This document shows, one piece after another, positions 6,718-23,220 of a stretch of DNA of 64,000 nt; positions within the stretch are counted from its first letter, which is position 1, and each line of letters opens with the position of its first letter. The position numbers and the translations under genes were made by a program. The notes beneath the pieces were generated by a model. That model ran no database searches and was not told the origin of the DNA. It saw only the letters and a program-made list of their open reading frames with translations. This stretch comes from Longimicrobiales bacterium (GTDB lineage Bacteria > Gemmatimonadota > Gemmatimonadetes > Longimicrobiales > Gaopeijiaceae), in the NCBI GenBank assembly GCA_965226375.1, contig CBDDCX010000008.1, forward strand, positions 2,080,001 to 2,144,000, given 5' to 3'.

Positions 6718-8094
6718 ATGAGACAGACCCTACTACTTCTCGCGGCAGCGCTCGCGATCGCATCGCCTCTCCAGGGCCAACGTGCCTTCGAGCCGCCGGA
6801 CAAGGCGCTCCACAGCCAGCGTCGTGCCAACTTCCGCGACGCGATGGACGGTGGAATCGCCCTCGTCGTCGCGGCCATCGAGAACCAGAATAAGATCTAC
6901 GAAGGCTTCGTGGATCACTCTGATCTGCATGACTTCATCTACCTAACGGGGCTCGAAGCGGACGACGCCTTTGGATCGGCGCTCGTCCTCGCACCCGACG
7001 CTGAGACCTACCGGGAGATCCTCTACACCTCCCAGGACCTAGAGGGGATGGCGGACCTGACCGGCATCGAGCACGTCTACCCGTACGAGCTGTTGACCGA
7101 GCATCTCTCCGATGCCATCACGGATTTCTCGCTCCTTAGGACCCACCAGCGAGGCAGCAAGGATCTCGCAAGCGATCTCTCACGGTCCCTCGGAGACGAC
7201 AAGAACATCTACTTCAACTACCAACGATTCCTGAACCTGGACGAAACGCCGCCCGAGCGACTCGACCTGGCCAATCGGCTTCGTTACTTCTCGCCCGAGG
7301 TCCAGATGAAGGACGCATCGGACATCCTCAACCGCCTTCGCATGATCCACGACGAGGCCTCGATCGCGATGCTCCGCAAGGCGTCCGATATCACGGTCCA
7401 GGCGTTCATGGAGTCGGCCAAGTCCGTCCGCGAGGAGATGACCACCCAGCAGATCGGAGCCATCGTAAACTTCACGTTCGAGTATGAACACGCGGCCCCG
7501 TCCTTCCGCACGGGCGTCTCGCCGTCCGGCCCGGGCGTCGTTCCGAGAAGCGGCGGCCGTGACTGGCCGATCGGAGTTCGCCGCAGACTCGGCCCGTGGC
7601 ACGTGAGTGACGGTCAAATGCTCAGCTACGACATCGGTGCCGAGTACGCACACTTCACGGCGGACTTCGGGCGCACCATCCCGGTCAGCGGCACGTACAC
7701 ACCGGAACAGCGGCGCATCGCCGAGGTCGTGACACGCGTACAAAAACAATTGATCGCTGCCGTGAAACCCGGGGGGACGTTCGCCGGCAGCCAGGCCCTC
7801 AAGGACCGGCTCATGTCAGAGGTCGGACTCCGTGACGTAACCAACACCTACGGCATCAGTCACTTCGTCGGTATGGAGATCCACGACGTCGGCTTCTATG
7901 ACATCCCTTGGGAACCGGGCATGTGCTTCGTCATCGAGTGGAGCGTAAGCCACGAGGATTGGTCGATTCGCTTCGAGGACGTGATCCTGGTTACTGAGGA
8001 CGGGCACGAGTGGCTAACGGGGCACTCACCCATCGAGCCCGACGAGATTGAGGCTCTCATGGCCCAGCAGGGTGTTTGGGAGGGTGGGCGGTAG
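6718..8094 (+). CDS. M24 Xaa-Pro aminopeptidase family with signal peptide
   Basis: YDIGAE, ADFGRT, SHFVGMEIHD, IE, FEDVIL. Confidence 0.88.
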   Translation: MRQTLLLLAAALAIASPLQGQRAFEPPDKALHSQRRANFRDAMDGGIALVVAAIENQNKIYEGFVDHSDLHDFIYLTGLEADDAFGSALVLAPDAETYREILYTSQDLEGMADLTGIEHVYPYELLTEHLSDAITDFSLLRTHQRGSKDLASDLSRSLGDDKNIYFNYQRFLNLDETPPERLDLANRLRYFSPEVQMKDASDILNRLRMIHDEASIAMLRKASDITVQAFMESAKSVREEMTTQQIGAIVNFTFEYEHAAPSFRTGVSPSGPGVVPRSGGRDWPIGVRRRLGPWHVSDGQMLSYDIGAEYAHFTADFGRTIPVSGTYTPEQRRIAEVVTRVQKQLIAAVKPGGTFAGSQALKDRLMSEVGLRDVTNTYGISHFVGMEIHDVGFYDIPWEPGMCFVIEWSVSHEDWSIRFEDVILVTEDGHEWLTGHSPIEPDEIEALMAQQGVWEGGR

Positions 8095-8127
8095 AACCGC
8101 TACTCGGGAGACGTGCGGGCCTTCCGA

Positions 8128-8451
8128 CTACGGGGAGTACGAGGCGTACGACTGCGCCCAATTCGCTACCACTAGTACCAAAGTCGTCAGGCAGCCGACC
8201 GCCCACAGCGAGAAGCGACCGAGTCGGGTCAACCGTCCACTCCGCATGAAGAGACGCGGAAGAGCGATCGAGAAACAACCTACATAGGTTCCCATCGCGT
8301 GCGCGCCGAACGGCAATCGCCTGGTCCCTTCAGTCGACTTCAGCCATGTGTACATCAGGTCGCCGAAGGCCGGCTCGAAGATCCGTTCGCGTATCTCGCG
8401 CGGTAGCAGGCGGCCGAGTAGGCGCCATCGCTCCACACCACCTTCACGCAC
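8128..8451 (-). CDS. Small PadR-associated membrane protein
   Basis: GTG start overlaps the PadR 3' end; RLLGRLLPREIRERIF..GDL helix plus hydrophobic C-terminal segments. Confidence 0.6.
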   Translation of the reverse strand: MREGGVERWRLLGRLLPREIRERIFEPAFGDLMYTWLKSTEGTRRLPFGAHAMGTYVGCFSIALPRLFMRSGRLTRLGRFSLWAVGCLTTLVLVVANWAQSYASYSP

Positions 8452-8773
8452 TGGCCAGCCCCTTCCGCCCGTCGAAGCCCCGGATAGCCTCCAGGTAGAA
8501 ATCCCGGCTCCCTTCCCACGCGCGCGTGCCATCCGCAGTGATCTTGTAGTGACGCTCGCGGATGATCTGGCTGTCGACGATCTCCTGATGGTAGGTGCCG
8601 GCGACCAGTCCCGAGTCCTCGAGCCGCGACATGAGCTGATAAAAGGCGGGGCCGCTCTTCTTTACCCCGAAGCCATTCAGCCGTCCTCGGATCTCCCGCC
8701 CCGGCACGCTCTGCCTCCTCAGAATCCCGACGACGAGAAACTGCAGGTGCGAAAGCCTTGGAACACCGGCCAT
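8444..8773 (-). CDS. PadR family transcriptional regulator
   Basis: GREI..GPAFYQLMSRLEDSGLV..RHYKITADG winged-helix pattern. Confidence 0.85.
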   Translation of the reverse strand: MAGVPRLSHLQFLVVGILRRQSVPGREIRGRLNGFGVKKSGPAFYQLMSRLEDSGLVAGTYHQEIVDSQIIRERHYKITADGTRAWEGSRDFYLEAIRGFDGRKGLASA

Positions 8774-8803
8774 GTTGACTGGTCCAGTAAAGTAATGTAC
8801 CGT

Positions 8804-8824
8804 TATGTTACTCGATGTGACATA
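8804..8824. promoter_or_regulatory. Inverted repeat, putative PadR operator between divergent genes
   Basis: TATGTTAC-N5-GTGACATA (one mismatch) in an AT-rich intergenic region. Confidence 0.55.
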
Positions 8825-8870
8825 TCTAAGATGGAGGGATGTCGGGATGGCGTCAACGGAGCGAAGGCGA

Positions 8871-9254
8871 ATGCAAAAGGCCTTAGCCATCGGCGTGTGG
8901 GCTCTGATCGTGTTCGAACTACAGATCGGCCTCACCGGAGTAGCCAAGTTCGGCGATGGGCCGTGGCGGGCGTGGTTCGAGGGATGGGGGTACCCGCCCT
9001 GGTTCCTTCTCGCGATCGGCATAGCAGAGCTCGGAGGGGCAGTGACCCTTATCATGAAGAAATTCGCCAGCTATGCCGCCATGCTGCTCATCGGCATCAT
9101 GATGGGCGCACTGTGGACCGTAACGATCAAGGAGTCACAACTCGGGCCCGACGGTCCGATCATCCACATCGTGATCCTCAGCCTCATCCTCTGGGGACGA
9201 TGGAAGCACCGGTGGCGGCCGGGGAGCATCCATGGAGCGCAGCCGGTCGTGTGA
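8871..9254 (+). CDS. DoxX family membrane protein
   Basis: GVAKF..FEGWGYPPWF..IGIAELGGA..MMGA. Confidence 0.75.
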   Translation: MQKALAIGVWALIVFELQIGLTGVAKFGDGPWRAWFEGWGYPPWFLLAIGIAELGGAVTLIMKKFASYAAMLLIGIMMGALWTVTIKESQLGPDGPIIHIVILSLILWGRWKHRWRPGSIHGAQPVV

Positions 9255-9373
9255 CGAACGAGCGCGCTCCTGCTTCAAGCTTGGGGAACCCACTTCTGGG
9301 GTCCGCGCGTTCGGGTGGGCGAGACACGAAACCAACGCCCGAACGGGCTTCCCGATAGATGGAGTTCTTCGAA

Positions 9374-9814
9374 ATGACGACGCCTGCTTTCACTCTGCCT
9401 CGCACCTTCAAGATGGTCACCCTCATTCTCGCCAGCGCCGCGCTTGTGGCCTGCGACGACGACGCCACCGGAATCGATCGCAACCAAGGCTCGGCCGACG
9501 CCGCCGTCGGTAGTGTCCAGGGACTCGTTACCGCGAACGGCCAGGGGGTCTCCGGCATCGCCGCTCGGTTCAGCCGGGACGGTGTCCCTATCTTGTTGGT
9601 CGAAACCGACGCTGACGGGCGGTTCTTTCTCGACGCGCTTCCGGTGGGCGAGTACGAGGTCGAGTTGCAGACGCTGGGCCGCTTCGAGCTTCCCGCGGAC
9701 GCCGACACCCGTCGCGCGATCACCACTCAATCGGTGTTCATCTTCGGTGGCATCACGGTCAATGTGGATTTCGATCTGTTCGAAAAGGCCGAGGACCTCC
9801 AAAACGGTGGCTGA
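9374..9814 (+). CDS. Lipoprotein with carboxypeptidase-regulatory-like beta domain
   Basis: LVAC lipobox; GSVQGLVT, TDADGRFFL..LPVGEYEV; start uncertain (9359/9374/9413). Confidence 0.65.
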   Translation: MTTPAFTLPRTFKMVTLILASAALVACDDDATGIDRNQGSADAAVGSVQGLVTANGQGVSGIAARFSRDGVPILLVETDADGRFFLDALPVGEYEVELQTLGRFELPADADTRRAITTQSVFIFGGITVNVDFDLFEKAEDLQNGG

Positions 9815-9878
9815 GGAACGAGACGCCACGCCGGGCCGTGTAGCGTAAGCGGTCGGCGAGACAAGTCCAGGTCCCACG

Positions 9879-9917
9879 AGGGGTCGGGCGCCTTAGGCGT
9901 CCGGCCCCTTGTTCGTT
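9879..9917 (+). terminator. Probable intrinsic terminator
   Basis: AGGGGTCGGGCGCC-TTA-GGCGTCCGGCCCCT hairpin with G-U pairs, followed by TGTTCGTT. Confidence 0.55.
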
Positions 9918-10039
9918 GCGAGCGCTCTCCTCCCGTGCTCACACGACCGATGATAGGCCAGTGATACCCCCACGCTACTGTCCGTGACGCTTGCAGCCCC
10001 CCCAGGGCAGCGCACGGATTCCCAGCACCAGGAGAACCG

Positions 10040-10222
10040 ATGAAGACCTTGACGCCAGAACGAATGAGGGACCTGCACGGGATGTGGATCGACGAAGGGG
10101 CCGTGTGCGGTTTCATGGTCGGCGCCGTACTCGGCGCCATCAGCCGCGGCTGGCTCGTACCCGCGGCGTACACCTTCATGTTCACACCCCTGATCTGCGC
10201 CCTCGACTACGGATTGCGGTAA
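10040..10222 (+). CDS. Bacteriocin-like precursor peptide A (60 aa)
   Basis: AGGAG RBS; leader MKTLTPERMRDLHG-M; hydrophobic core with GxxxG motifs and C23/C53; C39 transporter downstream. Confidence 0.75.
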   Translation: MKTLTPERMRDLHGMWIDEGAVCGFMVGAVLGAISRGWLVPAAYTFMFTPLICALDYGLR

Positions 10223-10268
10223 TCAGCCGGGCCATACCCCAAGACTCATCCCCAGAAAAGAGACTCAC

Positions 10269-10445
10269 ATGACCGAACTCACCACCACCCAGATGGCCGA
10301 CATCCACGGTATGAAATTCTGGCAAGGATTTCTCTGCGGCATCGGCCTCATCGCCTCAATCGGAATATCGGGCACCCCCGATCCGGTCGTGAGATGGGCC
10401 ATCTACAACGGCACGATCGGTGCCTGCGGTGTGGCATTCTCGTAG
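10269..10445 (+). CDS. Bacteriocin-like precursor peptide B (58 aa, not in ORF track)
   Basis: MTELTTTQMADIHGMKFWQGFLCGIGLIASIGISGTPDPVVRWAIYNGTIGACGVAFS*; leader and Cys positions are colinear with peptide A. Confidence 0.75.
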   Translation: MTELTTTQMADIHGMKFWQGFLCGIGLIASIGISGTPDPVVRWAIYNGTIGACGVAFS

Positions 10446-10451
10446 GTATTC

Positions 10452-10480
10452 GGGCTGGGCGCCCCCAGGGCGCCCAGCCC
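10452..10480 (+). other. Perfect 13-bp stem-loop directly after the precursor genes
   Basis: GGGCTGGGCGCCC-CCA-GGGCGCCCAGCCC, no U-tract. Confidence 0.7.
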
Positions 10481-10505
10481 CCCACCCTCTGCTCCGGTTT
10501 ATCGC

Positions 10506-12132
10506 ATGAACGGGGAGTCCAACCACCTCCGTCTAGTCACGCAATACAAGCTGCGCATAGCCCGCCGCCGCCTCGCCGACACGGTGCGCAACACCTTCGA
10601 GGGGAAGGTGGCCCTGATCTTCGTGCTGGCCGCTCCATTCTTGATGAAGGGCATGCTCGTCAAGTCCTCCCTACGGGCCGCGAGCACGAGCCGCGATCTA
10701 GCCCTCGTGATGCTAGTGTGGGCCCACGCCGCGGCCCTGGTCGCGCTCGTACTCGGCGTGATCGGGCACACGGCGCGCGAGCTGACCGTCGAGGACAAGA
10801 AAGAGCCGCTGGCTCTCTATCCAGGTGGGAGGCACGGTCTCGCCGCCTATCACGTCGGGGGATTGGTATCGCGCGCCTGCCTCGGCCTCCTCTTCTTCTT
10901 CTATCTCTTCTTTGGCGCCTTGATTCACGGCTTGACCCCTCGGCCGTTCCTCGTCGTGCCGATGCACCTCATCGCCCACGTGCTGGTGTTCGGCGCCTGC
11001 GGAGTACTGGCCTACCGTGCGACCCTTCGCTGGCTCGAGAGAAGACCCTCCAGAGGCCGAGCTCTGGACGTCGGAGCCGGTATCGGCTCCATCCTCGCGT
11101 TCCTGGCCATGGCAGGATCGGGCATACTCCTGGAAGGACTCGAGCCCACCACGCTGGCACGACTCGGGGTGTGGTTCGACACGGTGGCTGTCTTCTACCC
11201 CCCCCTCGCCCCGCTCGCCCAGCCGTCCGAGCGTCTCCTCGGCCCCACGGTCTGGGTCACCGCAATGGTGGTGACTCCAGTCATCGCCCTGTCGGTGGCC
11301 GGCCGACTAGTGCGAGACCCTAGTCCCCTCCTCTTGGGAGAGGTCGAAAGCCCCGGCGGGACGCAGCTTCGCCGGCAGTTTCCGGACATATGGGCGGTCC
11401 GCCGCCTGTGGCATGGCAGGCGTGCGCCTCTTCTTCGTGAAGGACATCCTCCTTCCCGCCACCCGAAACCCGCACCCCTCTTTCGCCCGACTTTGGTTCT
11501 TGTTGGCCCTCGCAACCATGACGCCTCTGGCAATATGGCAGCTCCGGCGTGAGGGGCGTGTCAGCGAAATCACCGCAGAGGCGGTACTGTGGGGATTGGT
11601 GATGGCGCTGCCGTCGATCACGGCCTACCTGCACGGACTCGGATCGCTCGGCCGGGAGGGTCCGGTACTGGCGCTGATACGTCCGACGCTCCGCCCAGCA
11701 ACGCTCTTCGGCTACAAGTTTGTTCCCGTGTTGGCTGCCATCCTGTTCACCGGCTTGCTCTATGGAACCGTCACGGGGGCCGTCGCCGGCGGGCTAACCC
11801 TTGCCCTCGGACCTCTGCAGGCAGCGAGCCTCGCTGGTCTCTCCGCTGGCGTCGCCAGCGCAAGCGCGGTCGCCGTCGGGTTCCTCTTTCCCGACTTTCG
11901 ATGCCGGAGTTCGCTCGCGAGGGGCTCATCATGGGCGGGGCGACGCCTGTTCGAGGGCCTGGCCGTCTACGGTATAGGGACGGGCGTGGCCTTGCGGGTG
12001 ATGACCCGCACGGGGGTGTTACCGGCCGACCTACTCGTCCGGACCCTGATCATCACGGCCGGCTTTGGTGTGACACTCGCTGTCGTCGTCGCGTTCTTCG
12101 CCCTTCGTCGATTCGCCCATCTGGAGACGTGA
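10506..12132 (+). pseudogene. Multi-TM ABC-exporter permease split by a frameshift near 11360 (real or sequencing error)
   Basis: Hydrophobic ORF 10506 becomes non-hydrophobic after EVESPGG; the overlapping frame continues FFVKDILLPATRNP and more TM helices to 12132. Confidence 0.65.
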
Positions 12133-12133
12133 G

Positions 12134-12900
12134 ATGATGGACGCACCGTCGATAAGAATCGAAAGCCTCACCAAGAGCTTCGGCCCGATCCAGGCCGTCT
12201 CCGAGCTGAGCATGACCGTCGACGCCGGTGAAATTTTCTGCTTTCTCGGCCCGAATGGTGCGGGCAAGACAACGACCCTCGACACGATCATGGGTTTCAA
12301 GAGACCCACCTCGGGGGACGTGTTCGTCAACGGCGTGAGTCTTCAAGCACTGAACGTCGAGTCGGCTCGACGTCGGATCGGCTATATGCCCGAGCAACCG
12401 GTGTTGTACGACCATCTCACCGGCCGAGAGTTCGTCCAGTTCATCGGCCAGCTCTACCAAGCGGACCGGGCGTCGAACAGCTGGCTGGACGAACAGTTGG
12501 CTGCCCTGCAGATGAGCCAGGATGCGGACCGCCTGATCAAGGGTGATTCGGCGGGCATGAAGAAGAAGATTTCCTTTCTCGCGGCCCTGGTCCATGAGCC
12601 CGACCTCCTGATCTTCGATGAACCCACCGGAGCGCTGGACGCACCAAGCGCCCGCCTCGTGAAAGATGAGCTCATCGCAGCCCGAGACAGAGGCTCGTTG
12701 GTGTTCTTCACGACCCATATTATGGAGCTCGCGGAACGCCTCGCGGATCGGATCGCCATTATCGATCACGGTCACCTCGTCGCCTCGGGGACGCTTCCGA
12801 ACTCCGGATCGAGCACGGCCGCGAGACCGGCGAGTCACTCGAGAACCTCTTCCTCCGCCTGGTGGGTCGGACGGGGTCGCGGACGGATGAGGGGTCATGA
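12134..12900 (+). CDS. ABC transporter ATP-binding protein with a 1-bp frameshift near 12797
   Basis: GPNGAGKTT, SAGMKKK, IFDEPT, H-loop; the shifted frame gives ELR..ESLENLFLRLV..TGA at 12898-12900, overlapping the next ATG (ATGA). Confidence 0.85.
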
Positions 12901-14144
12901 AGACCTCGGTTCTCCCACGCCTGGTCCGGCGCCTTGTAGGAGCCGTCAACCCGCAGCCCGTCGTGCGGCAGTACGATCGCGTCGATTGCGGCCCGGCCTG
13001 CTTGCTCTCGGTGCTGCGGTTCCACGGTGGCGACACCGGCCTTCCCAGCGTCCGATCCTGGGGTGGTACCGACGCGAACGGCACTAGCCTACTCGGACTC
13101 CACCGAGCCGCAACAGCTCTCGGTTTCGAGGCCCGCGGCGCCACGGGTGATTACCAAGACCTGCTCAAAGAAGAGTTGCCGTGCATCGCCCACGTGGTGC
13201 ATGAGGGAGCTCAACACTATGTCGTCGTCTACGAGGTGCACGACAGTCGGGTGAAGGTGGGCGATCCCGCCCTGGGACTGCGGTGGCTCTCGCGGGCCGA
13301 GTGCGAGCGCTTGTGGAGCCAGCGAGCGATCCTGATCCTGCATCCAGGCCCCAATCTCCGGTCAGAGCCTCCACCTCACTGGTTCGCATGGGTTGTGGGC
13401 CGTATCCGACACGTTCACGGATGGCTGGTACAGTCTGTGTTCCTCGGGGTCATCTACACGGTGTTGGGTCTCGCCACCGCGGTCGTGGTGCAACGGCTGA
13501 TCGACGACTTCATCGGGGAGCGAGACGTGTCAAGGATCCTGTGGGCGGGTGGGTTTCTTCTCGCCTTACATGCGGCTAGAGGGCTCGCCGGATACCTGCG
13601 TCAGCGGTTCTTGGTCGGGCTCGGTAAGCGTGCCTCAAACGCGATCGCGGCGGAACTCCTCGAACACCTGTTTCGGCTTCCCGCCAGCTATTTCGACACC
13701 CGAAGGCGTGGTGACATCATCGCGCGCCTTCAGGACGCCTCACGGATTCAGGCCGCCGTCCTGGAGATTCTGGGGAGCACGACCATCGACCTGCTGATCG
13801 CGACAATGTCCATGGCCGCAGTCTTTTACTTCTCGCCACCGCTGGGCCTGACCGCACTGCTCCTCCTGCTTCCGTGCGCTTTCTTCGCAGGCACCACGAT
13901 GGGACAGATCCATCGGGAGCAGGACGCCGCACTCGGCGCCTACGGGCTGCTGCAAGCCTCGTATGTCGACGCCGTCGACGGTATCGACTCGATCCGTGGG
14001 CTCGGCGTCGGCCGGATCTTCGCCCGAATGAACCTGTCACTCTTTGGTCACTTCCAGACCCGGGTGGAACGGCTGGGGCTGACACGCGCGGCGATCGGAT
14101 TTCAGGTGGAAAACGTAAACGGCGCCATGTTGGCCACCAGCTGA
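12897..14144 (+). pseudogene. C39 peptidase-containing ABC transporter (PCAT), truncated before the nucleotide-binding domain
   Basis: QYDRVDCGPACL, HYVV, GDP catalytic residues; TMD with LPASYFDTRRRGDIIARL; ends at 415 aa with no Walker motifs. Confidence 0.85.
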
Positions 14145-14194
14145 TCTCGATGCTGATGGCACACGTCCTGATCTCGATGCTGATGGCACACGTC
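14141..14194. repeat. 27-bp exact tandem duplication
   Basis: CTGATCTCGATGCTGATGGCACACGTC x2 at the PCAT truncation point. Confidence 0.95.
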
Positions 14195-14238
14195 CTGCCT
14201 TATCGTCTTTCCGTGCGGCGCTTGGAGGATTCGTAGCC

Positions 14239-14559
14239 GTGGCCTACGGCACCTTGGTGCGGATGCTGAGGCTCGATCTACTTCCACCGAACGCCCTGAC
14301 GCAGGAAGAGTTGGCCGTGGTTCCCGACTCCCTGGCGGTCGTATTCTCAGGCGCTTGGGCGGACGTCTCCGTCCTCTCCGCATCCTTGAGCGTACTGAGC
14401 CTACACGATGCGTTCTGGCTCGTAATCGTCACTTTTTACCTGGCTGGATTGACGGGTTTCGGGCGCCGACGGGCCTTCACGATCGCTCTGGGCGCATGGT
14501 GCGCCACGGCGCTGGCCAGAGTGGGGGCTGAGGTCTTCGTGACCGGGATGCTCAGCTAG
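14239..14559 (+). pseudogene. Probable C-terminal fragment of a membrane protein (possibly YIP1-like)
   Basis: Frame open from 14119; SLSVLSLHDAFW..LAGLTGFGRRRAFTIALGAW; no convincing start. Confidence 0.4.
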
Positions 14560-15263: not shown

Positions 15264-16907
15264 ATGTCGAATCTACAGACACGGTCTAGCGTACGTATCG
15301 GCTCATGGAGTGGACCGAAGGACCACCTTCTCACTACTCCTGAGGAATTGGCCCGAGGCCTGGCTCGTGTAGGCTCCCCCCTCTACGCCGTCGATCACGC
15401 GGAGACCTTCGCGCTCTCCCATGTGGGCCGCGTCGAACTAGGCGGCGACCCTCAGGTGGAGGGTCTGCCTCTTCTGGCGTTGGCTCCTGCCTGCAAGCCT
15501 CAGAGCCTGGGATCGGCCGGTTTCGCCCGGGACCACGGTGTGCGCTTCTGTTATCTCGCTGGCGCCATGGCGAACGGCATCGCCTCGGTAGAGTTCGTGG
15601 AGGCCATGGGCCGGGCAGGTATGCTCTCCTTTTTCGGCGCCGCCGGCCTCGGACCGGGTCCGGTGGAGGACGCCATCGACCACATCTCTACGCGCCTCGG
15701 TGACCTTCCCTGGGGCTTCAATCTGATTCACAGCCCCTACGAGCCCCGATTAGAAGAGGCCGTGGCCGACCTCTATGTGCGCCGCGGCGTGAGCCGTGTG
15801 TCCGCCTCGGCCTATATGGATCTCACCCTGCCCCTGGTGCGTTATCGACTCCACGGAATTCATTCGGACTCGTCGGGTCGGGTGGTGACACCGCACCGGG
15901 TGGTTGCCAAGGTCTCGCGCGTCGAGGTGGCTCGACGGTTCTGCGCGCCGGCGCCGACCAAAATGCTGGCCGAACTCGTTGCCCGCGGAGATCTTACCGA
16001 AGATCAGGCTCGCATGGCGGAATCCGTTCCGGTCGCCCAGGACCTGACCGTGGAGGCCGACTCGGGCGGACACACCGACAATCGGCCCGCGATCGCCCTT
16101 GTCCCGACCATGCTGGCCCTTCGTGATCGGCTTCAGGTGGAGCACGACTACGCGGTACCGTTGCGTGTGGGTTCCGCTGGCGGCATCTCGACGCCACATT
16201 CCGTGGCCGCGGCGTTCGCGATGGGGGCCGACTACGTGATGACCGGCTCCGTCAATCAGGCGTGTAGAGAGGCCGGAACGTCCGATACGGTGCGGCAAAT
16301 GCTGGCTCAGGCGGAGCAGGCCGACGTGACCATGGCGCCCGCCGCAGACATGTTCGAGATGGGCGTCAGGTTGCAGGTCCTCAAGCGTGGAACGATGTTT
16401 CCAATGAGGGCTCACCGCCTCTTTGATCTCTATAGAGCGCATGCGGGGCTCGAAGATATTCCCGACGACGAACGGCAGAATCTCGAACGTACGATTTTCC
16501 GTACGACATTGGACGAGATCTGGAACGAGACACGTGGCTTCTGGGAAGCCCGTGACCCGGATCAGGTCGCCAGAGCCGAGCGCGATCCGAAACATCGGAT
16601 GGCGCTGGTCTTTCGGTGGTATTTGGGGATGTCGTCCCGTTGGGCGAACCGCGGGGAGCCGGGTCGAGAGATGGACTACCAGGTGTGGTGCGGCCCGGCG
16701 ATGGGTGCTTTCAACGAGTGGGTCCGGGGCAGCGTGCTGGAGCCCTGGGAAAATCGTCGCGCAGTAAGCGTGGCTCACAACATGTTGCATGGTGCTGCGG
16801 TCATTACACGGGCGAACGCTCTGCGCAGCCAGGGAGTGGAGTTGCCGGCCGCCTGTGTCGACGTCCTCCCCCGAGAAACAGACGAACTCGAGGAATTGCT
16901 GTCTTGA
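15264..16907 (+). CDS. pfaD: PUFA-synthase enoyl reductase (PfaD/Pfa1)
   Basis: AGAMANGIAS, AKVSRVEVA, EADSGGHTDNRP, APAADMFEMGV, DYQVWCGPAMGAFN. Confidence 0.95.
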   Translation: MSNLQTRSSVRIGSWSGPKDHLLTTPEELARGLARVGSPLYAVDHAETFALSHVGRVELGGDPQVEGLPLLALAPACKPQSLGSAGFARDHGVRFCYLAGAMANGIASVEFVEAMGRAGMLSFFGAAGLGPGPVEDAIDHISTRLGDLPWGFNLIHSPYEPRLEEAVADLYVRRGVSRVSASAYMDLTLPLVRYRLHGIHSDSSGRVVTPHRVVAKVSRVEVARRFCAPAPTKMLAELVARGDLTEDQARMAESVPVAQDLTVEADSGGHTDNRPAIALVPTMLALRDRLQVEHDYAVPLRVGSAGGISTPHSVAAAFAMGADYVMTGSVNQACREAGTSDTVRQMLAQAEQADVTMAPAADMFEMGVRLQVLKRGTMFPMRAHRLFDLYRAHAGLEDIPDDERQNLERTIFRTTLDEIWNETRGFWEARDPDQVARAERDPKHRMALVFRWYLGMSSRWANRGEPGREMDYQVWCGPAMGAFNEWVRGSVLEPWENRRAVSVAHNMLHGAAVITRANALRSQGVELPAACVDVLPRETDELEELLS

Positions 16908-19900
16908 GCGATCGGAACGAAAGTCGGGCCGCGGCCCAGTCACCCATAGCCATCGTCGGCATCGCCTGTGTATTCCCGAAGGCAGGGGGTCTGCAGGACT
17001 ACTGGGCGAATATCCGGAACGGCGTCGACGCGATCACCGAGATCCCGGAGGCCTACTGGAAGACGTCGGACTATTACGACGCCGACCCCAAACAGCCCGA
17101 CATGACCTATGGTCGCCGCGGCGGCTTCATCGATCCCATCGACTTCGAGCCCATGGCCTTCGGCATTTCGCCGCGGGACCTCGAAGCCACGGACAGCACC
17201 CAACTGATCGGGTTGCATGTAGCCAGTCAGGCCCTCCAGGACGCCGGCTACGGCCCGGAGGGTCGAGAGTTCGATCGGGAAAAAACGAGCGTCATTCTCG
17301 GGGTGAGCGGGACACTGCCGCTGGTGATTCCCCTGGGCGCCCGTCTCGGACACCCCATCTGGCGCAAGGCGCTGGAAGACGCGGGGGTGGACCCGGAGAC
17401 GACCGAAGACGTTATCGAGCGCATCGGAGATGGCTACGTCCCATGGCAGGAGAACTCCTTCCCGGGACTCTTGGCCAACGTCGTCGCCGGCCGCATTGCC
17501 AATCGCCTCGACCTTCACGGCACCAACTGCATCGTCGACGCGGCCTGCGCGTCATCGCTCAGCGCTGTCCATCTCGCGGCCCTCGAGCTCGAGGCGGGCC
17601 GGGCCGACATGGTTCTGAGCGGCGGGCTGGACACGTTCAACGACATCTTCATGTATATGTGCTTCTCCAAGACACCGGCCCTGTCGGCCACGGGGAATGC
17701 ACGCCCATTCAACGATGAGGCCGACGGCACCATTCTGGGTGAGGGTGTCGGGATGCTGGTACTGAAGCGGCTCGGGGATGCCGAGCGAGACGGCGACCGC
17801 ATCTATGCGGTGATCAAGGGCATCGGGTCGTCTTCCGACGGAAAAGGACAGGCCGTGTATGCCCCGGCCCCCGAGGGGCAGGCGAGAGCGTTGCGCGCGG
17901 CATACGACAGCGCGGGCATTCAGCCGGACACGGTCGAGCTCGTAGAAGGTCATGGAACCGGCACCCGGGTGGGTGACGCGACCGAGGCGAAAGGCCTGAC
18001 CACCGTCTACCGGGAGGCCAGCCCAGAAGGAACCTGGTGTGCCCTCGGGTCCGTAAAGTCGATGATCGGCCACACGAAGGCCGCGGCAGGAGCAGCGGGC
18101 CTGATCAAGACGGCCATGGCACTTCACCACAAGACTCTTCCCCCGACCATCAAGGTGGAGAGCCCCAACGAAGCCGTGGCTACCGGGGAGACTCCGTTCT
18201 ATGTGAACACAGAGAAGCGGCCCTGGATGCCCAAGAGCGGCCATCCACGCCGCGCCGGCGTAAGCGCCTTCGGGTTCGGAGGGAGCAATTTCCACTGTGT
18301 GGTGGAGGAGTACGAGTCAAAGGCCACCGAGGTCGACTGGGACGGACGCGATCAGTTGATCGCCTTCTCAGCCGCAGATCGTGAGGCCCTCGCCGCACAA
18401 CTCCAGGAATTCGAGGGGTCGGGCGAGTGGGCCGACATCCGGGGGAGGGCCGCCGAAAGTCGCGCCCGCTTCGACGTGTCCCACCAGGTCAGACTTCTTC
18501 TGGTAGCCGACCGGGACGGAACACCGGTCAGCGATCTCATCACAATGGCGCTCTCACAGCTGAAGGACGAGCGCACGTCCTGGGCGATGCCTCAGGGCAT
18601 CTACTTCGGATCCGGTGCCGCAAAGGGTAAATGGGCGGCATGTTTCCCGGGACAGGGTGCTCAGTACGTCGGCATGCTCCGAGAGCTGGCGTGCCGCTTC
18701 CCCGCGGCAGCCGACGCGTTGGCCGCCTCCGCCGAAGTGACACCTTATGTGGTCGACCGGGTGTATCCCCATCCGGCGTTCGACGACGCTTCCCGATCGC
18801 GGCAGGAGGACGAACTCCGAGCCACCGACACGGCCCAGCCGGCCATCGGCGCCGTAAGCCTGGCCGCTCTCCGGGTGCTCGAACAGTTCGGTCTCACGCC
18901 CGACGCCACGTGCGGCCACAGCTACGGCGAGCTCGTAGCGCTTTGCGCCGCGGGTCGCCTCCGGCCCATGGAGCTGTACCAACTCTCCCGTCGCCGGGGC
19001 GAACTCATGGCGATGGGCGATGGAGATCATGGATCGATGTTGGCGGTGGCCGCCGAACTGGAGTGGGTGAAACAGTTCCTGCGGACCCACGATCTCGACC
19101 TGGTCGTGGCAAACCACAACGCCCCCGAACAGGCCGTACTGTCCGGCGTGACCTACGAGATCGAGCGTGCCCAGGATCTCCTGTCGCGAGAAGGCGTGCG
19201 GGTGAAACGCCTTCCCGTGGCCGCTGCATTCCATAGCAGTCTTGTGGCCCAGGCCGGCGCACCGTTCGCCGAGAGCCTGACGAGCATCGAGCTCACGGGG
19301 AGCGACGTGACCGTGTACGCCAACGCCACCGGCGATGCGTATCCGGCACGGTCAACCGACGCACGTGAGTTGCTGGCCAGTCAGTTGACCTCACCGGTTG
19401 AGTTCGTGGCGTGTGTCAAGTCGATGTTCGACGACGGTGTGCGAACCTTCGTGGAGGTAGGTCCGGGGCGTCGCCTCTCAGCCCTCATCGACGAGATCCT
19501 GGCGGGCGAGGACATTACGACGGTGGCCGTCGATGCCTCCTCGGGCCGCCGAGCCGGACTCGTCGACTTGGCCCGAACGCTCGCCCAGGTAGCCGCCGAC
19601 GGGCATGCTGTCGCGCTGGATCGCTGGGACGACGGAGCGCTCGATGCTTGGCAACGTAGGATCGCCCGCGGCAAGCCCACGATGACCGTTCCGATTTCCG
19701 GTGTGAACCACGTGGATCCGCGGCCGACGCGGCCGCCCAGAGTGGCCACCCCTGCTCTGCCGGCAACGTCTCCGGCGGTAAGACCGACCCCAATCGTCCA
19801 TCAAGTTGGTCCGACATCCGAGGCTGCGGAGTCCACCTCGGATCCCCAGTTGTTGGCCGAGGCCATGCGCGCGAGCCAGGCCAGCCTCCAGGCGCTGGTC

Positions 19901-22900
19901 CGGCTGCAGGAGCAGACTGCGGACGTGCACCGCCGGTTCCTCGAGTCGCAGGAGCGGACCATCCAGGCCATCGCAGGACAGCAAGGGCTGCTGCCGGCCG
20001 TGCCTGCCGCGAACCCGGCCCCTTCCAGGGTGCCCGAGCCCGCTCTGGCTCAGGAGGCCCTCGCCCTGACACCGGAGCCCACTCCAGAGCCCGCCCCGAC
20101 AGTGGCACCCGCACCGACCGTCGAGCCCGAGGTAGCCGCACCGGGCGTCGCGGCAGCACTACTCTCGGTCGTGTCGGAGAAGACCGGATACCCGGAGGAG
20201 ATGCTGGAATTGTCAATGGGGCTAGATGCGGATCTGGGCATCGACTCCATCAAGCGGGTCGAGATTCTGTCCGCGCTCCAGGAGCGGCTCCCCGACGCAC
20301 CGGTGATCACTCCCGAGCACCTGGGTGAGATCCAGACGCTCGGACAGATCGTCGAGTTCCTCGGCGGCTCCGCCTCCGAGTCGGAGGCACCTTCGGTCAC
20401 AGGCGAGGCGACCACCCTTGTGGATGCCGCCGAGACGACCGGACCAACGACGTCTGCTACAGCGGGTATCGCCGAGATGCCGGCCAACGATGCCGCAGAC
20501 GCGGCGGCCAACGGAAGCGCAGACGCGGTAGGCAACCCAAGCGTCGACAGTGCACGCATCTCCGAGGTCCTGCTGAGCGTAGTCGCCGACAAGACGGGAT
20601 ATCCCGTCGACATGCTCGACGTATCGATGAATCTGGATGCCGACCTGGGCATCGACTCCATCAAGCGGGTCGAAATCCTGGCGGCGTTGCAGGAAGCGCT
20701 CCCAGAGGCCCCGGTCGTGGCTCCGGACCAACTCGGTGAGCTCCGGACCCTGAGCCAAATCGTGGACGTGCTCGCCCAAGGAGCCGAATCCGAGCCGGCG
20801 CCCCCGCCCTCGCTGCCTGTCCCGGACCAACCCGCTCGGTCCGTGCCAAAGGGCGTCGAGCGCCTGGTCCCGACACTGCGGCCCCTCGATTCGATCGGAG
20901 AGCCGATCGGGCTTCCCGCCGGGTCCAAGATCTGGGTAGCCAAGAGCGGCAACGTGCTCTCGGGCCAGATCGTCGAAGAGCTCAGCGCACAGGGTTACTC
21001 CGCCGAAGAGGTGGAACTTGCCGACCAGGTGCACAACCCGCCCGACGACGTCGCCGGCTTGATTGTGGTCGTACCTCCTCGTGTCACCGACGAGGACATC
21101 CTGTTCGGATTCGGACGCGTTCGAGCCATGGCCCCCGTCCTTCGCCGCGCGGCGCTGCAGGGCGGTGCCCTCCTGTGCAGCGTGACCTGCCTAGGTGGCG
21201 GCTTCGCTCTCGAGGCGGCTCCCCCCGAGGATGTGGATGCCACGGGCGGGGCCTGGGGCGGCCTGACCAAGACGGCCGCCGCAGAGTGGACGGAGGTCGA
21301 CTGCAAGTGCATCGACGTTGATCCGAACCGAATTGATCTGGCGTCGGACGTAGTGAAGTACGCTCTCTCGGAGGGGCCGGTGGAAATCGGCCTGGGGAGC
21401 GATGGGCCCGTTACGGTGGTTCTCGAGCCACAGCCTGTCGAGCCTGCGGCGCACGCGGCCCTGGGATCCGACGATGTCGTACTGATCACCGGTGGCGCCC
21501 GGGGCGTAACGGCCGAGGTTGCCGTAGCGATGGCCCAAGCAGGACAACCTGGGCTGATCCTTATGGGCCGCAGTCCGGAGCCGAGCAGTGAGCCCGACCG
21601 GCTCATCGGTCTGGACGGGGAGGCCGACGTCAAGCGTGCCATCGTGGCCCACGCGGGCCCGGGCGTCAGCCCCCAGGAGGTGCAGGCCGAATACAACCGT
21701 ATCCAGGCCAGCCGCGAGATCCTACGCAACCTCGCTCGAATCTCGGCGGCGGGCTCGGAGGTCGTCTACACCTCCGTCGATGTGCGTGACCCTGACGCCG
21801 TACGGACCAGCCTCGAGCCACTGATCGAGGAGTTCGGGCCCATCACGGGGCTCGTGCACGGAGCCGGGGTCCTGGCGGACCGCAACATCGAGGACAAGAG
21901 CGACGAGGACTTCGCTTTCGTCTACAACACCAAGGTGGGTGGGCTACGCTCCGTGCTTGCTGCCCTGGACGACGCACCCCTGAAAACCATGGTGATGTTC
22001 TCCTCCTCGACGGCCCGCTTCGGACGCCGCGGACAGGCGGACTACGCTGCCGCAAACGAGGTGCTGAACAAGGTGGCGCAGGTCGAAGCGGCCCGCAGAG
22101 AAGGCTGCCGGGTAGTCTCGGTGAACTGGGGACCCTGGGATGGCGGCATGGTGACGCCGGCACTCAAGGGCATATTCTCTGCCGAGGGTATCGAGGTGAT
22201 CGGTATGGAGAGCGGCGCGGCCTACCTCCTCGACGAGATCGCGTGTGACGGGCCGGCGGAAGTGCTCGTCCTCGGAGCGGGGTCGCATGTTCCCAGCGAG
22301 GCGCCCACATCGACCGTGGCGACGAACGGGGCGGTACAGGATGAGTTGCCCGTGGTCTTCGAACGGACCATCAGCACCGACACACACGAGTTCATGGCGT
22401 CCCACGTCTTGGACGGACGCGCCGTGCTGCCGGCCGCGATGACCCTGGAGTGGCTGGCCCACAGCGCGCTTCACGGGAATCCGGGACTGCGTTTTGTCGG
22501 GGTCGACGACTTCCGTGTGTTCAAGGGAGTCCTCGTTCAGGCACAGGAGTCCTTCCGGGTACGCGTGTGTGCCGACGAGGCGCGGCGCCGTGGTGATGAA
22601 TTCGTGGTGACGGCGGAGCTCTGTAGCGGCGGGAGCAACGGCAGGCGGGTGCTACACGCCCGAGCCGAGATCGTCTTGGCCGCACGTCAGCCTGAGGCGG
22701 CTACACCCCACGCATCCCAAGACCTGCCGGCGCTCGAACAGTCCATCGAGAGTATCTACTCCGAAACGCTCTTCCATGGCCCGGCGATGCGCGGCCTGGT
22801 GGACGTCGAGAGTTGTGGAGATGCGGGCCTCGTGGCTCGCTGCCGGGTGGCACCGCCGCCCAAGGACTGGATGCAAGAGCCCGTGCGTAATCGGTGGATT

Positions 22901-23215
22901 GCGGATCCCCTCGTGCTCGACAGTGGACTTCAGGCCATGATCGTCTGGACCTCCGACCGGGTGGGAGAGGCTTCGCTCCCGTCACGCCTGACGCGCTATC
23001 GCCAGTTCGTCCCCGCGTTCCCCGAGAGTGGTGCGCGCATCGTCATCAACGTGCGCGACCGAACGGACGCTCGCGTGGTGTCGGACATCGACTGGGTCGG
23101 AGACGACGGGCGACTGCTCGCCCGACTCGAAGGATACGAGTCGGTTGTGGACCCGTCGCTGAGCAAAGCGTTCCGCCAAAACAGACTCGACACGAGCGCG
23201 TCGTCCAAGGCGTAA
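16904..23215 (+). CDS. pfaA: PUFA-synthase PfaA/Pfa2: KS-AT-ACP-ACP-KR-DH
   Basis: DAACASS, HGTGT, GHTK; GHSYG; two DLGIDSIKRVEI; GGARGV/YAAAN; HVLDGRAVLP; TTG start overlaps the pfaD stop. Confidence 0.93.
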   Translation: MSDRNESRAAAQSPIAIVGIACVFPKAGGLQDYWANIRNGVDAITEIPEAYWKTSDYYDADPKQPDMTYGRRGGFIDPIDFEPMAFGISPRDLEATDSTQLIGLHVASQALQDAGYGPEGREFDREKTSVILGVSGTLPLVIPLGARLGHPIWRKALEDAGVDPETTEDVIERIGDGYVPWQENSFPGLLANVVAGRIANRLDLHGTNCIVDAACASSLSAVHLAALELEAGRADMVLSGGLDTFNDIFMYMCFSKTPALSATGNARPFNDEADGTILGEGVGMLVLKRLGDAERDGDRIYAVIKGIGSSSDGKGQAVYAPAPEGQARALRAAYDSAGIQPDTVELVEGHGTGTRVGDATEAKGLTTVYREASPEGTWCALGSVKSMIGHTKAAAGAAGLIKTAMALHHKTLPPTIKVESPNEAVATGETPFYVNTEKRPWMPKSGHPRRAGVSAFGFGGSNFHCVVEEYESKATEVDWDGRDQLIAFSAADREALAAQLQEFEGSGEWADIRGRAAESRARFDVSHQVRLLLVADRDGTPVSDLITMALSQLKDERTSWAMPQGIYFGSGAAKGKWAACFPGQGAQYVGMLRELACRFPAAADALAASAEVTPYVVDRVYPHPAFDDASRSRQEDELRATDTAQPAIGAVSLAALRVLEQFGLTPDATCGHSYGELVALCAAGRLRPMELYQLSRRRGELMAMGDGDHGSMLAVAAELEWVKQFLRTHDLDLVVANHNAPEQAVLSGVTYEIERAQDLLSREGVRVKRLPVAAAFHSSLVAQAGAPFAESLTSIELTGSDVTVYANATGDAYPARSTDARELLASQLTSPVEFVACVKSMFDDGVRTFVEVGPGRRLSALIDEILAGEDITTVAVDASSGRRAGLVDLARTLAQVAADGHAVALDRWDDGALDAWQRRIARGKPTMTVPISGVNHVDPRPTRPPRVATPALPATSPAVRPTPIVHQVGPTSEAAESTSDPQLLAEAMRASQASLQALVRLQEQTADVHRRFLESQERTIQAIAGQQGLLPAVPAANPAPSRVPEPALAQEALALTPEPTPEPAPTVAPAPTVEPEVAAPGVAAALLSVVSEKTGYPEEMLELSMGLDADLGIDSIKRVEILSALQERLPDAPVITPEHLGEIQTLGQIVEFLGGSASESEAPSVTGEATTLVDAAETTGPTTSATAGIAEMPANDAADAAANGSADAVGNPSVDSARISEVLLSVVADKTGYPVDMLDVSMNLDADLGIDSIKRVEILAALQEALPEAPVVAPDQLGELRTLSQIVDVLAQGAESEPAPPPSLPVPDQPARSVPKGVERLVPTLRPLDSIGEPIGLPAGSKIWVAKSGNVLSGQIVEELSAQGYSAEEVELADQVHNPPDDVAGLIVVVPPRVTDEDILFGFGRVRAMAPVLRRAALQGGALLCSVTCLGGGFALEAAPPEDVDATGGAWGGLTKTAAAEWTEVDCKCIDVDPNRIDLASDVVKYALSEGPVEIGLGSDGPVTVVLEPQPVEPAAHAALGSDDVVLITGGARGVTAEVAVAMAQAGQPGLILMGRSPEPSSEPDRLIGLDGEADVKRAIVAHAGPGVSPQEVQAEYNRIQASREILRNLARISAAGSEVVYTSVDVRDPDAVRTSLEPLIEEFGPITGLVHGAGVLADRNIEDKSDEDFAFVYNTKVGGLRSVLAALDDAPLKTMVMFSSSTARFGRRGQADYAAANEVLNKVAQVEAARREGCRVVSVNWGPWDGGMVTPALKGIFSAEGIEVIGMESGAAYLLDEIACDGPAEVLVLGAGSHVPSEAPTSTVATNGAVQDELPVVFERTISTDTHEFMASHVLDGRAVLPAAMTLEWLAHSALHGNPGLRFVGVDDFRVFKGVLVQAQESFRVRVCADEARRRGDEFVVTAELCSGGSNGRRVLHARAEIVLAARQPEAATPHASQDLPALEQSIESIYSETLFHGPAMRGLVDVESCGDAGLVARCRVAPPPKDWMQEPVRNRWIADPLVLDSGLQAMIVWTSDRVGEASLPSRLTRYRQFVPAFPESGARIVINVRDRTDARVVSDIDWVGDDGRLLARLEGYESVVDPSLSKAFRQNRLDTSASSKA

Positions 23216-23220
23216 CCTCT

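Follow-up and report, generated by a model that had tools for sequence, protein, structure and literature searches.

Gallocin A is a two-peptide bacteriocin (GllA1/GllA2) whose weakly charged cores, 42 and 60 amino acids (aa) long, are hairpins with one disulfide each, and a thioredoxin gene accompanies its genes (PMC10100652). With brochocin-C, with thermophilin 13 and with ABP-118 it forms a proposed disulfide-hairpin subgroup of class IIb bacteriocins (PMC10100652). A pair of small peptide genes resembling this subgroup, here called A and B, lies in a 64,000-nucleotide stretch of DNA from a Longimicrobiales bacterium (GenBank GCA_965226375.1, contig CBDDCX010000008.1, positions 2,080,001 to 2,144,000, forward strand), hereafter the window. 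Its phylum, Gemmatimonadota, is diderm. A and B are conserved, selected genes, paired beside genes for a permease, an ATP-binding cassette (ABC) ATPase, a C39 peptidase-containing ABC exporter (PCAT) and a Yip1-like membrane protein. With a probability of about 0.65 they encode an unmodified class IIb bacteriocin pair of the gallocin A/brochocin-C disulfide-hairpin type. In what follows genomes are designated G, other loci L and sequencing runs X; L030 is a locus syntenic with the window.

Like the gallocin A subgroup, the family has a tandem pair of precursors with predicted double-glycine-type leaders, hydrophobic cores that are long, carry little charge and have two Cys near the ends of a predicted helical hairpin, a C39 ABC exporter and, in many loci, a thioredoxin-domain helper gene. 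It differs in its diderm host, in giving no significant sequence or Pfam match, in a predicted leader of 15 aa (23 aa in gallocin), in a non-Gly residue at position -1 in many members, and in an extra permease/ATPase pair and Yip1-like protein. Neither a GIP-like immunity peptide nor a BlpHR/GSP quorum system was seen. The pair is filed as probably working like a gallocin-type class IIb bacteriocin, by analogy, and not as a member by sequence.

Bacteroidetocin loci comprise a five-helix protein, the peptide, a thiol oxidoreductase and a PCAT; no immunity was found there and release through the outer membrane was left open (PMC6671954). By locus description, and not by sequence comparison of peptides or five-helix proteins, these bacteriocins (proposed class IIf) share with the present family a diderm producer, a 15-aa leader, a core of about 42 aa and the absence of a listed adaptor or immunity gene. 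The same set (PCAT, thiol oxidoreductase and five-helix protein by a 15-aa-leader peptide) occurs in G105, L068, L080 and L081, and without the oxidoreductase in the window's lineage. A bacteroidetocin is one peptide, related to class IIa (bacteroidetocins A and B have four Cys); the present cassettes encode an obligate pair of two-Cys peptides together with a second ABC system.

Class II microcins (microcin V type) resemble what is predicted here in being unmodified, in having a double-glycine leader that a PCAT removes and in their Gram-negative hosts; they act singly and use a PCAT with a membrane fusion protein and TolC (PMC12219008), and the cassettes inspected here have no fusion-protein gene. 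Circular and leaderless clusters, too, combine a membrane protein of Yip1 type with an ABC ATPase and a permease of large size (PMC11580447); the present family differs from them in its predicted cleavable double-glycine-type leader and its PCAT, and gave no DUF95/SpoIIM hit.

Peptide genes A and B and their family

The features of the peptide region are as follows.
10030 to 10034, + strand: AGGAG, a Shine-Dalgarno (SD)-like sequence ahead of peptide A, read from the sequence; GGAG or GGAGG stands at the same site in G001, G002 and L030.
10040 to 10222, + strand: precursor A, 60 aa, with a predicted 15-aa double-glycine-type leader and a 45-aa hydrophobic core; Cys23 and Cys53; three GxxxG motifs.
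10269 to 10445, + strand: precursor B, 58 aa, with a predicted 15-aa leader and a 43-aa core; motif FWxGFxCG...PDP...C.

The original prediction had put two small open reading frames (ORFs) at these places, with hydrophobic cores, two Cys apiece and a list of shared residues. All of this was borne out: each peptide has exactly two Cys (Cys23 and Cys53), the cores have a grand average of hydropathy (GRAVY) of 1.01 (A) and 0.83 (B) and net charges of -1 (A) and +1 (B), and every listed residue is shared, as are A29 and V40. In ungapped alignment A and B are identical at 16 of 58 positions, a level reached by none of 100,000 shuffles; positions 15 to 58 alone give 9/44 (P ~0.004). SD-like sites precede both peptide genes in relatives. 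The ratio of nonsynonymous to synonymous substitution rates (dN/dS) was 0.04 to 0.28 for A and 0.15 to 0.33 for B when the window, G001, G002 and L030 were compared in all six pairs, revealing purifying selection throughout. From the ungapped identity, the ribosome-binding sites and the low dN/dS, both small ORFs are real genes. No A or B substitutions separate the four runs X3, X4, X9 and X11, which is uninformative (16 listed sites in 4.9 kb). Conserved across the whole family are just the leader pattern, G14, C23-G24 and C53; D11, H13 and T49, shared by A and B, are lineage-specific coincidences. Met15 was considered as an alternative start and rejected, since relatives have G, A, S or E there.

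A is paired with B in every locus examined. A scan of metagenome contigs for the B-type pattern gave 302 matches and 22 confirmed loci, and an A-type two-Cys peptide adjoins B in all 22 (21 are intact, at 25 to 92 bp, and one has an ambiguous leader base). The order may be A-B or B-A. With the genome loci included there are 27 distinct pairs, falling into 11 groups at 40% distance. Broadened profiles, to which G000, G105, G177 and G252 themselves contributed, found A in those four of 401 genomes of the phylum, each of which also has B. The scan gave four more, weak, hits to B, which were discarded as unrelated proteins without the second Cys. A B profile built from seven sequences and run against 1.84 billion proteins returned 59 representatives, 49 of which keep FxxGxxC and a later second Cys; the ten that were looked up are all named only 'hypothetical protein'. 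Plasmid searches gave nothing meaningful, and the single viral hit was not a peptide gene.

Three observations on individual loci may be added. In one lineage a third, A-derived two-Cys peptide, shorter and more cationic, precedes A (L028 9903 to 10055, - strand; L068 7341; L070 744; L073 777; L076 85). L079 (1613 to 6253) carries a pair near a DUF5686/CarboxypepD_reg-like gene and a diverged permease, which hints at a host outside Gemmatimonadota. L029, L061 and L075, all with B before A, have a common upstream neighbourhood: a signal peptidase II gene and, recognized by eye, OsmC-like genes and ABC genes of Mla type.

Across loci the main A and B peptides have cores of 38 to 46 aa, GRAVY of about 0.8 to 1.6, net charge of -3 to +2 and one to five GxxxG motifs. 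The Cys pair is invariant or nearly so, with a spacing of 29 to 30 in A and mostly 30 to 33 in B. AlphaFold2, given 34 B sequences, modelled a leader helix followed by a hairpin of helices 16-33 and 39-57 joined by the Pro-Asp-Pro turn (mean predicted local distance difference test 77, predicted template-modelling score 0.48), with one Cys on each arm; B alone was modelled, and the Cys-Cys distance is not part of the model. A fold search with B against the Protein Data Bank (PDB) was uninformative, with nothing at E 0.001, and a prediction of the A+B complex (score 0.02 against a mark of 0.32) weighs neither way. The two cores match each other in hhalign (probability 40%, E 3e-4) and are distant paralogues.

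With residue 15 numbered -1, residues L4, M9, L/I12 and G14 fall on the double-glycine consensus positions -12, -7, -4 and -2, so that the leader of precursor A reads L-12, M-7, L-4, G-2, M-1. A hydrophobic -12/-7/-4 pattern is what LahT reads (PMC6363468). The columns of G14-M15 hold GG, GA or GS in relatives, the three pairs that the double-glycine rule permits (PMC10885120). Counted across loci, positions 14 and 15 are GG in 29, GM in 3 and GA in 1 for A, and GG in 16, GE in 9 and GM in 4 for B. Among 47 B-type representatives with Gly14, residue 15 is G in 26, E in 10, R in 6, A in 2 and Q, T or S in one each. Cleavage is probably after residue 15, as predicted from these alignments; the alternative is a cut after Gly14. 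Five B-type cores (P0039, P0043, P0053, P0060 and P0035) lie behind longer N-terminal regions, in proteins of 81 to 97 aa. Their N-termini resemble a Sec signal peptide followed by a leader remnant, which suggests a Sec-routed branch of the family.

The transport cassette and a proposed mechanism

Downstream of the peptide genes the window contains the following.
10452 to 10480, + strand: GC hairpin of 13 bp with no U-tract, between peptide and transport genes (z-score -3.8).
10506 to 12132, + strand: ABC-type permease with about 11 to 12 predicted helices and no Pfam family, now in two ORFs (10506 to 11552 and 11413 to 12132).
12134 to 12900, + strand: ABC ATPase (PF00005), whose original-frame stop overlaps the PCAT start (ATGA).
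12897 to 14144, + strand: C39-peptidase ABC exporter (PCAT), truncated to 415 of about 715 aa; Q25, C31, H107 and D123 intact.
14168 to 14559, + strand: 3' remnant of the Yip1-like gene (full length about 210 aa, about five helices).

The conserved order in Gemmatimonadota is A, B, hairpin, permease of about 550 aa, ABC ATPase, PCAT and Yip1-like membrane protein. The cassette is intact in G001 and G002 (same genus), which encode a permease of 564 to 567 aa, the ATPase, a PCAT of 713 to 716 aa and a membrane protein of about 208 aa; only these six genes, and no modifying enzyme, sit between those for an M24 peptidase and RidA. All six also occur in L030, G177 and G252 and, reordered, in G105, some with lesions. 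The permease is a single ORF of 541 to 567 aa in G001, G002 and L030, and the PCAT is full length in G001, G002, G177, G105, L068 and L080. In metagenome loci the C39 exporter was found in 5/5 with at least 3.2 kb downstream, a match to the permease profile in 13/18 where 400 bp or more was available, and the Yip1-like gene in 2/2 where 5.2 kb or more was. Homologues with conserved leader and Cys linked to C39 transporters, anticipated by the original prediction, exist, and the catalytic residues of the C39 peptidase are intact as it had claimed.

The cassette is rare and patchy among the genomes searched, with the peptide pair in four of the 401 scanned and a close PCAT in only G000, G001 and G002 of 41 genomes (own genome included). 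Two other candidates were set aside. G123, where a partial Yip1-like hit adjoins an ATPase and a permease, lacks both the PCAT and the peptides, and the PCAT of G040 is part of another system.

Scoring of 8000 candidates for the permease recovered close relatives only, with no family and no informative name. The ESM Atlas clusters nearest to the Yip1-like protein are Yip1-domain clusters (score 0.93; in the top two, 54% and 17% of members carry Yip1), Pfam, PF04893 included, gave no hit to it, and its best fold match (Z 6.8) was uninformative. No sensor kinase or response regulator was recognized beside the inspected cassettes, whose flanking genes vary by lineage.

A gene for a membrane-anchored thioredoxin-like protein with CPHC, CGHC, CIHC or CDHC often stands upstream of the cassette. 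It directly adjoins 6/15 metagenome loci with room for it and also occurs in G105; in G177 it is broken. We take CxHC to be a mark of DsbA/PDI-type oxidases. A variant cassette (L080 4214 to 9765, L081 and L078) has the order thioredoxin, B, A, ATPase (its C-terminal domain of DrrA type), short permease, PCAT and Yip1-like gene; its cores are acidic (net -3), and in L080 a 1130-aa STAND-type protein is encoded upstream.

A hairpin follows the last peptide gene with z below -3.6 in 4/9 loci and -1.8 to -2.1 in three, and is weak or absent in two (L068, L029). Those of L063, L071 and L075 (z -3.7 to -3.9) are unrelated in sequence, and the three values of -1.8 to -2.1 belong to close relatives. 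No two-sided compensatory change was found in four hairpin sequences. The hairpin is likely to stabilize or limit the transcript and so tune expression. Rfam gave no match, and no sigma-70-like promoter was found in 9200 to 10600.

In intact copies the hairpin would allow stronger expression of the peptide genes than of the transport genes. The PCAT would bind the leaders through their hydrophobic residues at -12, -7 and -4, cut behind residue 15, which follows Gly14 as Met here and as Gly or Glu elsewhere, and move the cores across the inner membrane. The membrane-anchored CxHC thioredoxin, or a host oxidase where it is absent, would then join Cys23 to Cys53 and lock each core as a helical hairpin. 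A and B may pack through their GxxxG faces in the target membrane and make it leak. The permease/ATPase pair would clear peptide from the producer's own membrane, a self-protective role proposed because no small immunity gene was seen, and the Yip1-like protein may assist production or release. Tentatively, the route through a diderm cell may be free of an adaptor: a PCAT accepting Met, Glu or Arg would deliver to the periplasm, the CxHC oxidase would close the disulfide, and the permease/ATPase and Yip1-like module would handle the peptides from there. Were this so, a Gram-negative phylum would have its own family of two-peptide disulfide pore-formers in the Gram-positive style, with a way of releasing bacteriocin, or of protecting the producer, not yet described for diderm cells.

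Weighing the class IIb assignment

Comparative support for the unmodified two-peptide, PCAT-processed, disulfide-containing, bacteriocin-like system of the original prediction is strong (obligate pairing, invariant Cys, C39 linkage and thioredoxin genes). Several points weigh against it. The loci were picked by their B pattern and many are kin, so that the pairing count overstates independence, and the Mantel r of 0.84 could arise from shared descent alone. Four B-type peptides have a Cys spacing of only 21 to 25. Met, Glu and Arg at -1 lie outside the GG/GA/GS rule (PMC10885120). The thioredoxin gene was not found at the loci of the window's lineage (window genome, G001, G002 and L030), nor in G252. 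A small dedicated immunity gene was not seen in any inspected cassette; between the peptide genes and the permease none is present in the window, G001, G002, G177 or G252. Inspected cassettes have no HlyD/TolC gene to account for a route out of the diderm cell.

By family search, too, no member scored above Pfam or NCBIfam cut-offs. The best match to PF10439 (E 0.025, in 3/34 members) was below cut-off, TIGR03949 was matched at E 0.03 by 1/10, and PF17508 weakly by two of 34 B members. A PDB sequence search found the leader region of carnobacteriocin B2 only (E 0.11). The ESM Atlas clusters nearest to the cores are class II/IIb bacteriocins (score 0.87 to 0.90), a lead only.

The peptides might instead travel no further than the periplasm or inner membrane and have the producer itself as their target, in envelope or growth control or as a suicide module, or be processed further, for example by head-to-tail cyclization. 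Such limited transport would fit the missing adaptor genes: HlyD_3 was absent near the cassette in five genomes (nearest more than 80 kb away or on other contigs), and a scan of 31 cassette and flanking proteins, drawn from 104 listed ORFs, showed no membrane fusion protein. It would also fit the damage to transport genes in several lineages (window, L030, G177 and G252). Bacteroidetocins are lethal to the cells that make them, and their release may depend on lysis; yet their loci also list no adaptor, and the toxin is extracellular, even in E. coli (PMC6671954). Yip1 proteins have been noted in circular and leaderless bacteriocin clusters (PMC11580447), which would suit cyclization. However, Pfam gave no DUF95/SpoIIM hit on the cassette proteins. 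Cores of 43 to 45 aa with a cleavable double-glycine-type leader are unlike circular bacteriocins, which also counts against a cyclized product. Action on the producer, or a further-processed peptide, is on balance unlikely.

That A and B are two independent single-peptide bacteriocins (class IId or microcin-like) with one common exporter is quite unlikely. In its favour, their cores are distant paralogues, and the third A-derived peptide of L028, L068, L070, L073 and L076 is as in bacteriocin arrays. Every examined locus nevertheless keeps one A-type and one B-type peptide, in either order and with cores below 30% identity, and there is no A-only genome among the 401.

Signalling, which the original prediction had allowed for, found little support, and a role of one or both peptides as ComC/BlpC-like pheromones is very unlikely. 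B residues 3 to 28 match BlpC weakly (E 0.015; cut-off 70 bits), but this is mostly leader, and the cores are long and hydrophobic. The large STAND-type regulator upstream in L080 would favour a regulatory system; against it stand the variable flanks and the lack of a recognizable sensor kinase or response regulator already described.

Hardly credible is the notion that the small ORFs arose by chance or that the breaks are assembly errors in a working cluster: purifying selection and ribosome-binding sites refute the former, and for the latter the absence of the permease frameshift from X9, and of the 27-nucleotide duplication and 4-nucleotide loss near 14206 from X4 (either may be private to the strain or an assembly error), is set against one X4 contig, from another study and with seven substitutions, that spans both frameshifts and the deletion joint, and against frame-changing indels, common against all three relatives, that are confined to the cassette among the coding regions compared.

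Decay of the window copy and significance of the family

The class IIb pair predicted here is no longer served by a complete cassette in the window. The permease/ATPase and C39 transporter genes named in the original prediction are present on the same strand, but it missed that the first two are frameshifted and the third truncated. Relative to G001, G002 and L030, a +1 frameshift near 11347 splits the permease gene, and the ATPase has its last 35 or so residues replaced through a -1 frameshift near 12796. The PCAT ends at residue 415, with its last helices and nucleotide-binding (ATPase) domain gone.
14141 to 14194, + strand: deletion joint (about 1.15 kb lost relative to G001), then a perfect 27-nucleotide tandem duplication.
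The deletion takes the 3' third of the PCAT gene and the first third of the Yip1-like gene, and the remnant of the latter has an extra 4-nucleotide loss near 14206. The suggestion that a modification enzyme had been deleted at about 14140 is rejected, since the intact G001 and G002 show only the PCAT 3' third and Yip1-like 5' part there.

Of 20 runs with the region, four (X3, X4, X9 and X11) were compared, all as contigs. X3 is identical over 9800 to 14139 and may be the same strain. The permease frameshift is present in X3, X4 and the fragmentary X11 and absent in X9, which keeps the ATPase frameshift and does not bridge the joint; the ATPase stretch is gap-free in X3, X4 and X9. X4 lacks both the duplication and the 4-nucleotide loss. 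The lesions are real and accumulated stepwise, because independent runs carry them in different sets. The genome is 90% complete and its one C39 match is a PCAT without its ATPase domain, so export has most likely been lost in this strain. Other copies that appear damaged are those of L030 and G252 (PCAT frameshifts) and G177 (permease frameshift).

Around the cassette, about 1.7 kb (8094 to 9822) encoding a PadR-like regulator, a small membrane protein, a DoxX protein and a lipoprotein-like ORF with a carboxypeptidase-regulatory-like domain is missing from the corresponding position in G001 and G002. A very stable 17-bp hairpin (9876 to 9912, z -7.6) upstream of peptide A is probably the terminator of the upstream gene. 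At 15264 to 30456 lie large iterative polyketide synthase genes, in which acyl-carrier-like repeats stand in tandem, and a PfaD-like gene; the start of this region is syntenic in G001, G002 and L030, and we presume it to be a fatty-acid synthase cluster of pfa type.

This paired family is real and has apparently not been described before, and the window copy is a relic. The novelty claimed at the outset holds for the sequence family, which has no significant match to a characterized one, and for the diderm host, the cassette without HlyD/TolC gene and the bulky Met, Glu or Arg at the predicted cleavage position, but not for the likely disulfide-hairpin chemistry, which is already published. 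Literature searches on Gemmatimonadota bacteriocins, double-glycine or two-peptide systems, microcins and sponge C39/class II systems found no paper on such peptides (most subscription papers were outside coverage). A survey of marine Gemmatimonadota lists Nif11-type bacteriocins and 'microcin' genes in 20 metagenome-assembled genomes and, in the available text, does not describe these peptides (PMC11316326). IIBacFinder predicted class II bacteriocins in 34/56 phyla; Gemmatimonadota is unnamed in the available main text, and the supplements could list such peptides (PMC12648112).

At least 27 distinct natural A+B pairs, short, synthesizable and invisible to Pfam and NCBIfam cut-offs, are thus available from a little-studied phylum. 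If the class IIb assignment is true, the gallocin-type subgroup, which has Gram-positive producers only in the cited literature, would be extended to diderm bacteria. Two questions become testable with the family: how PCAT-exported peptides pass an outer membrane without an adaptor, which the bacteroidetocin work did not settle, and to what extent a bulky residue at the site of cleavage is accepted by C39 peptidases. The strain series is in addition a record of the stepwise decay of such a cassette.

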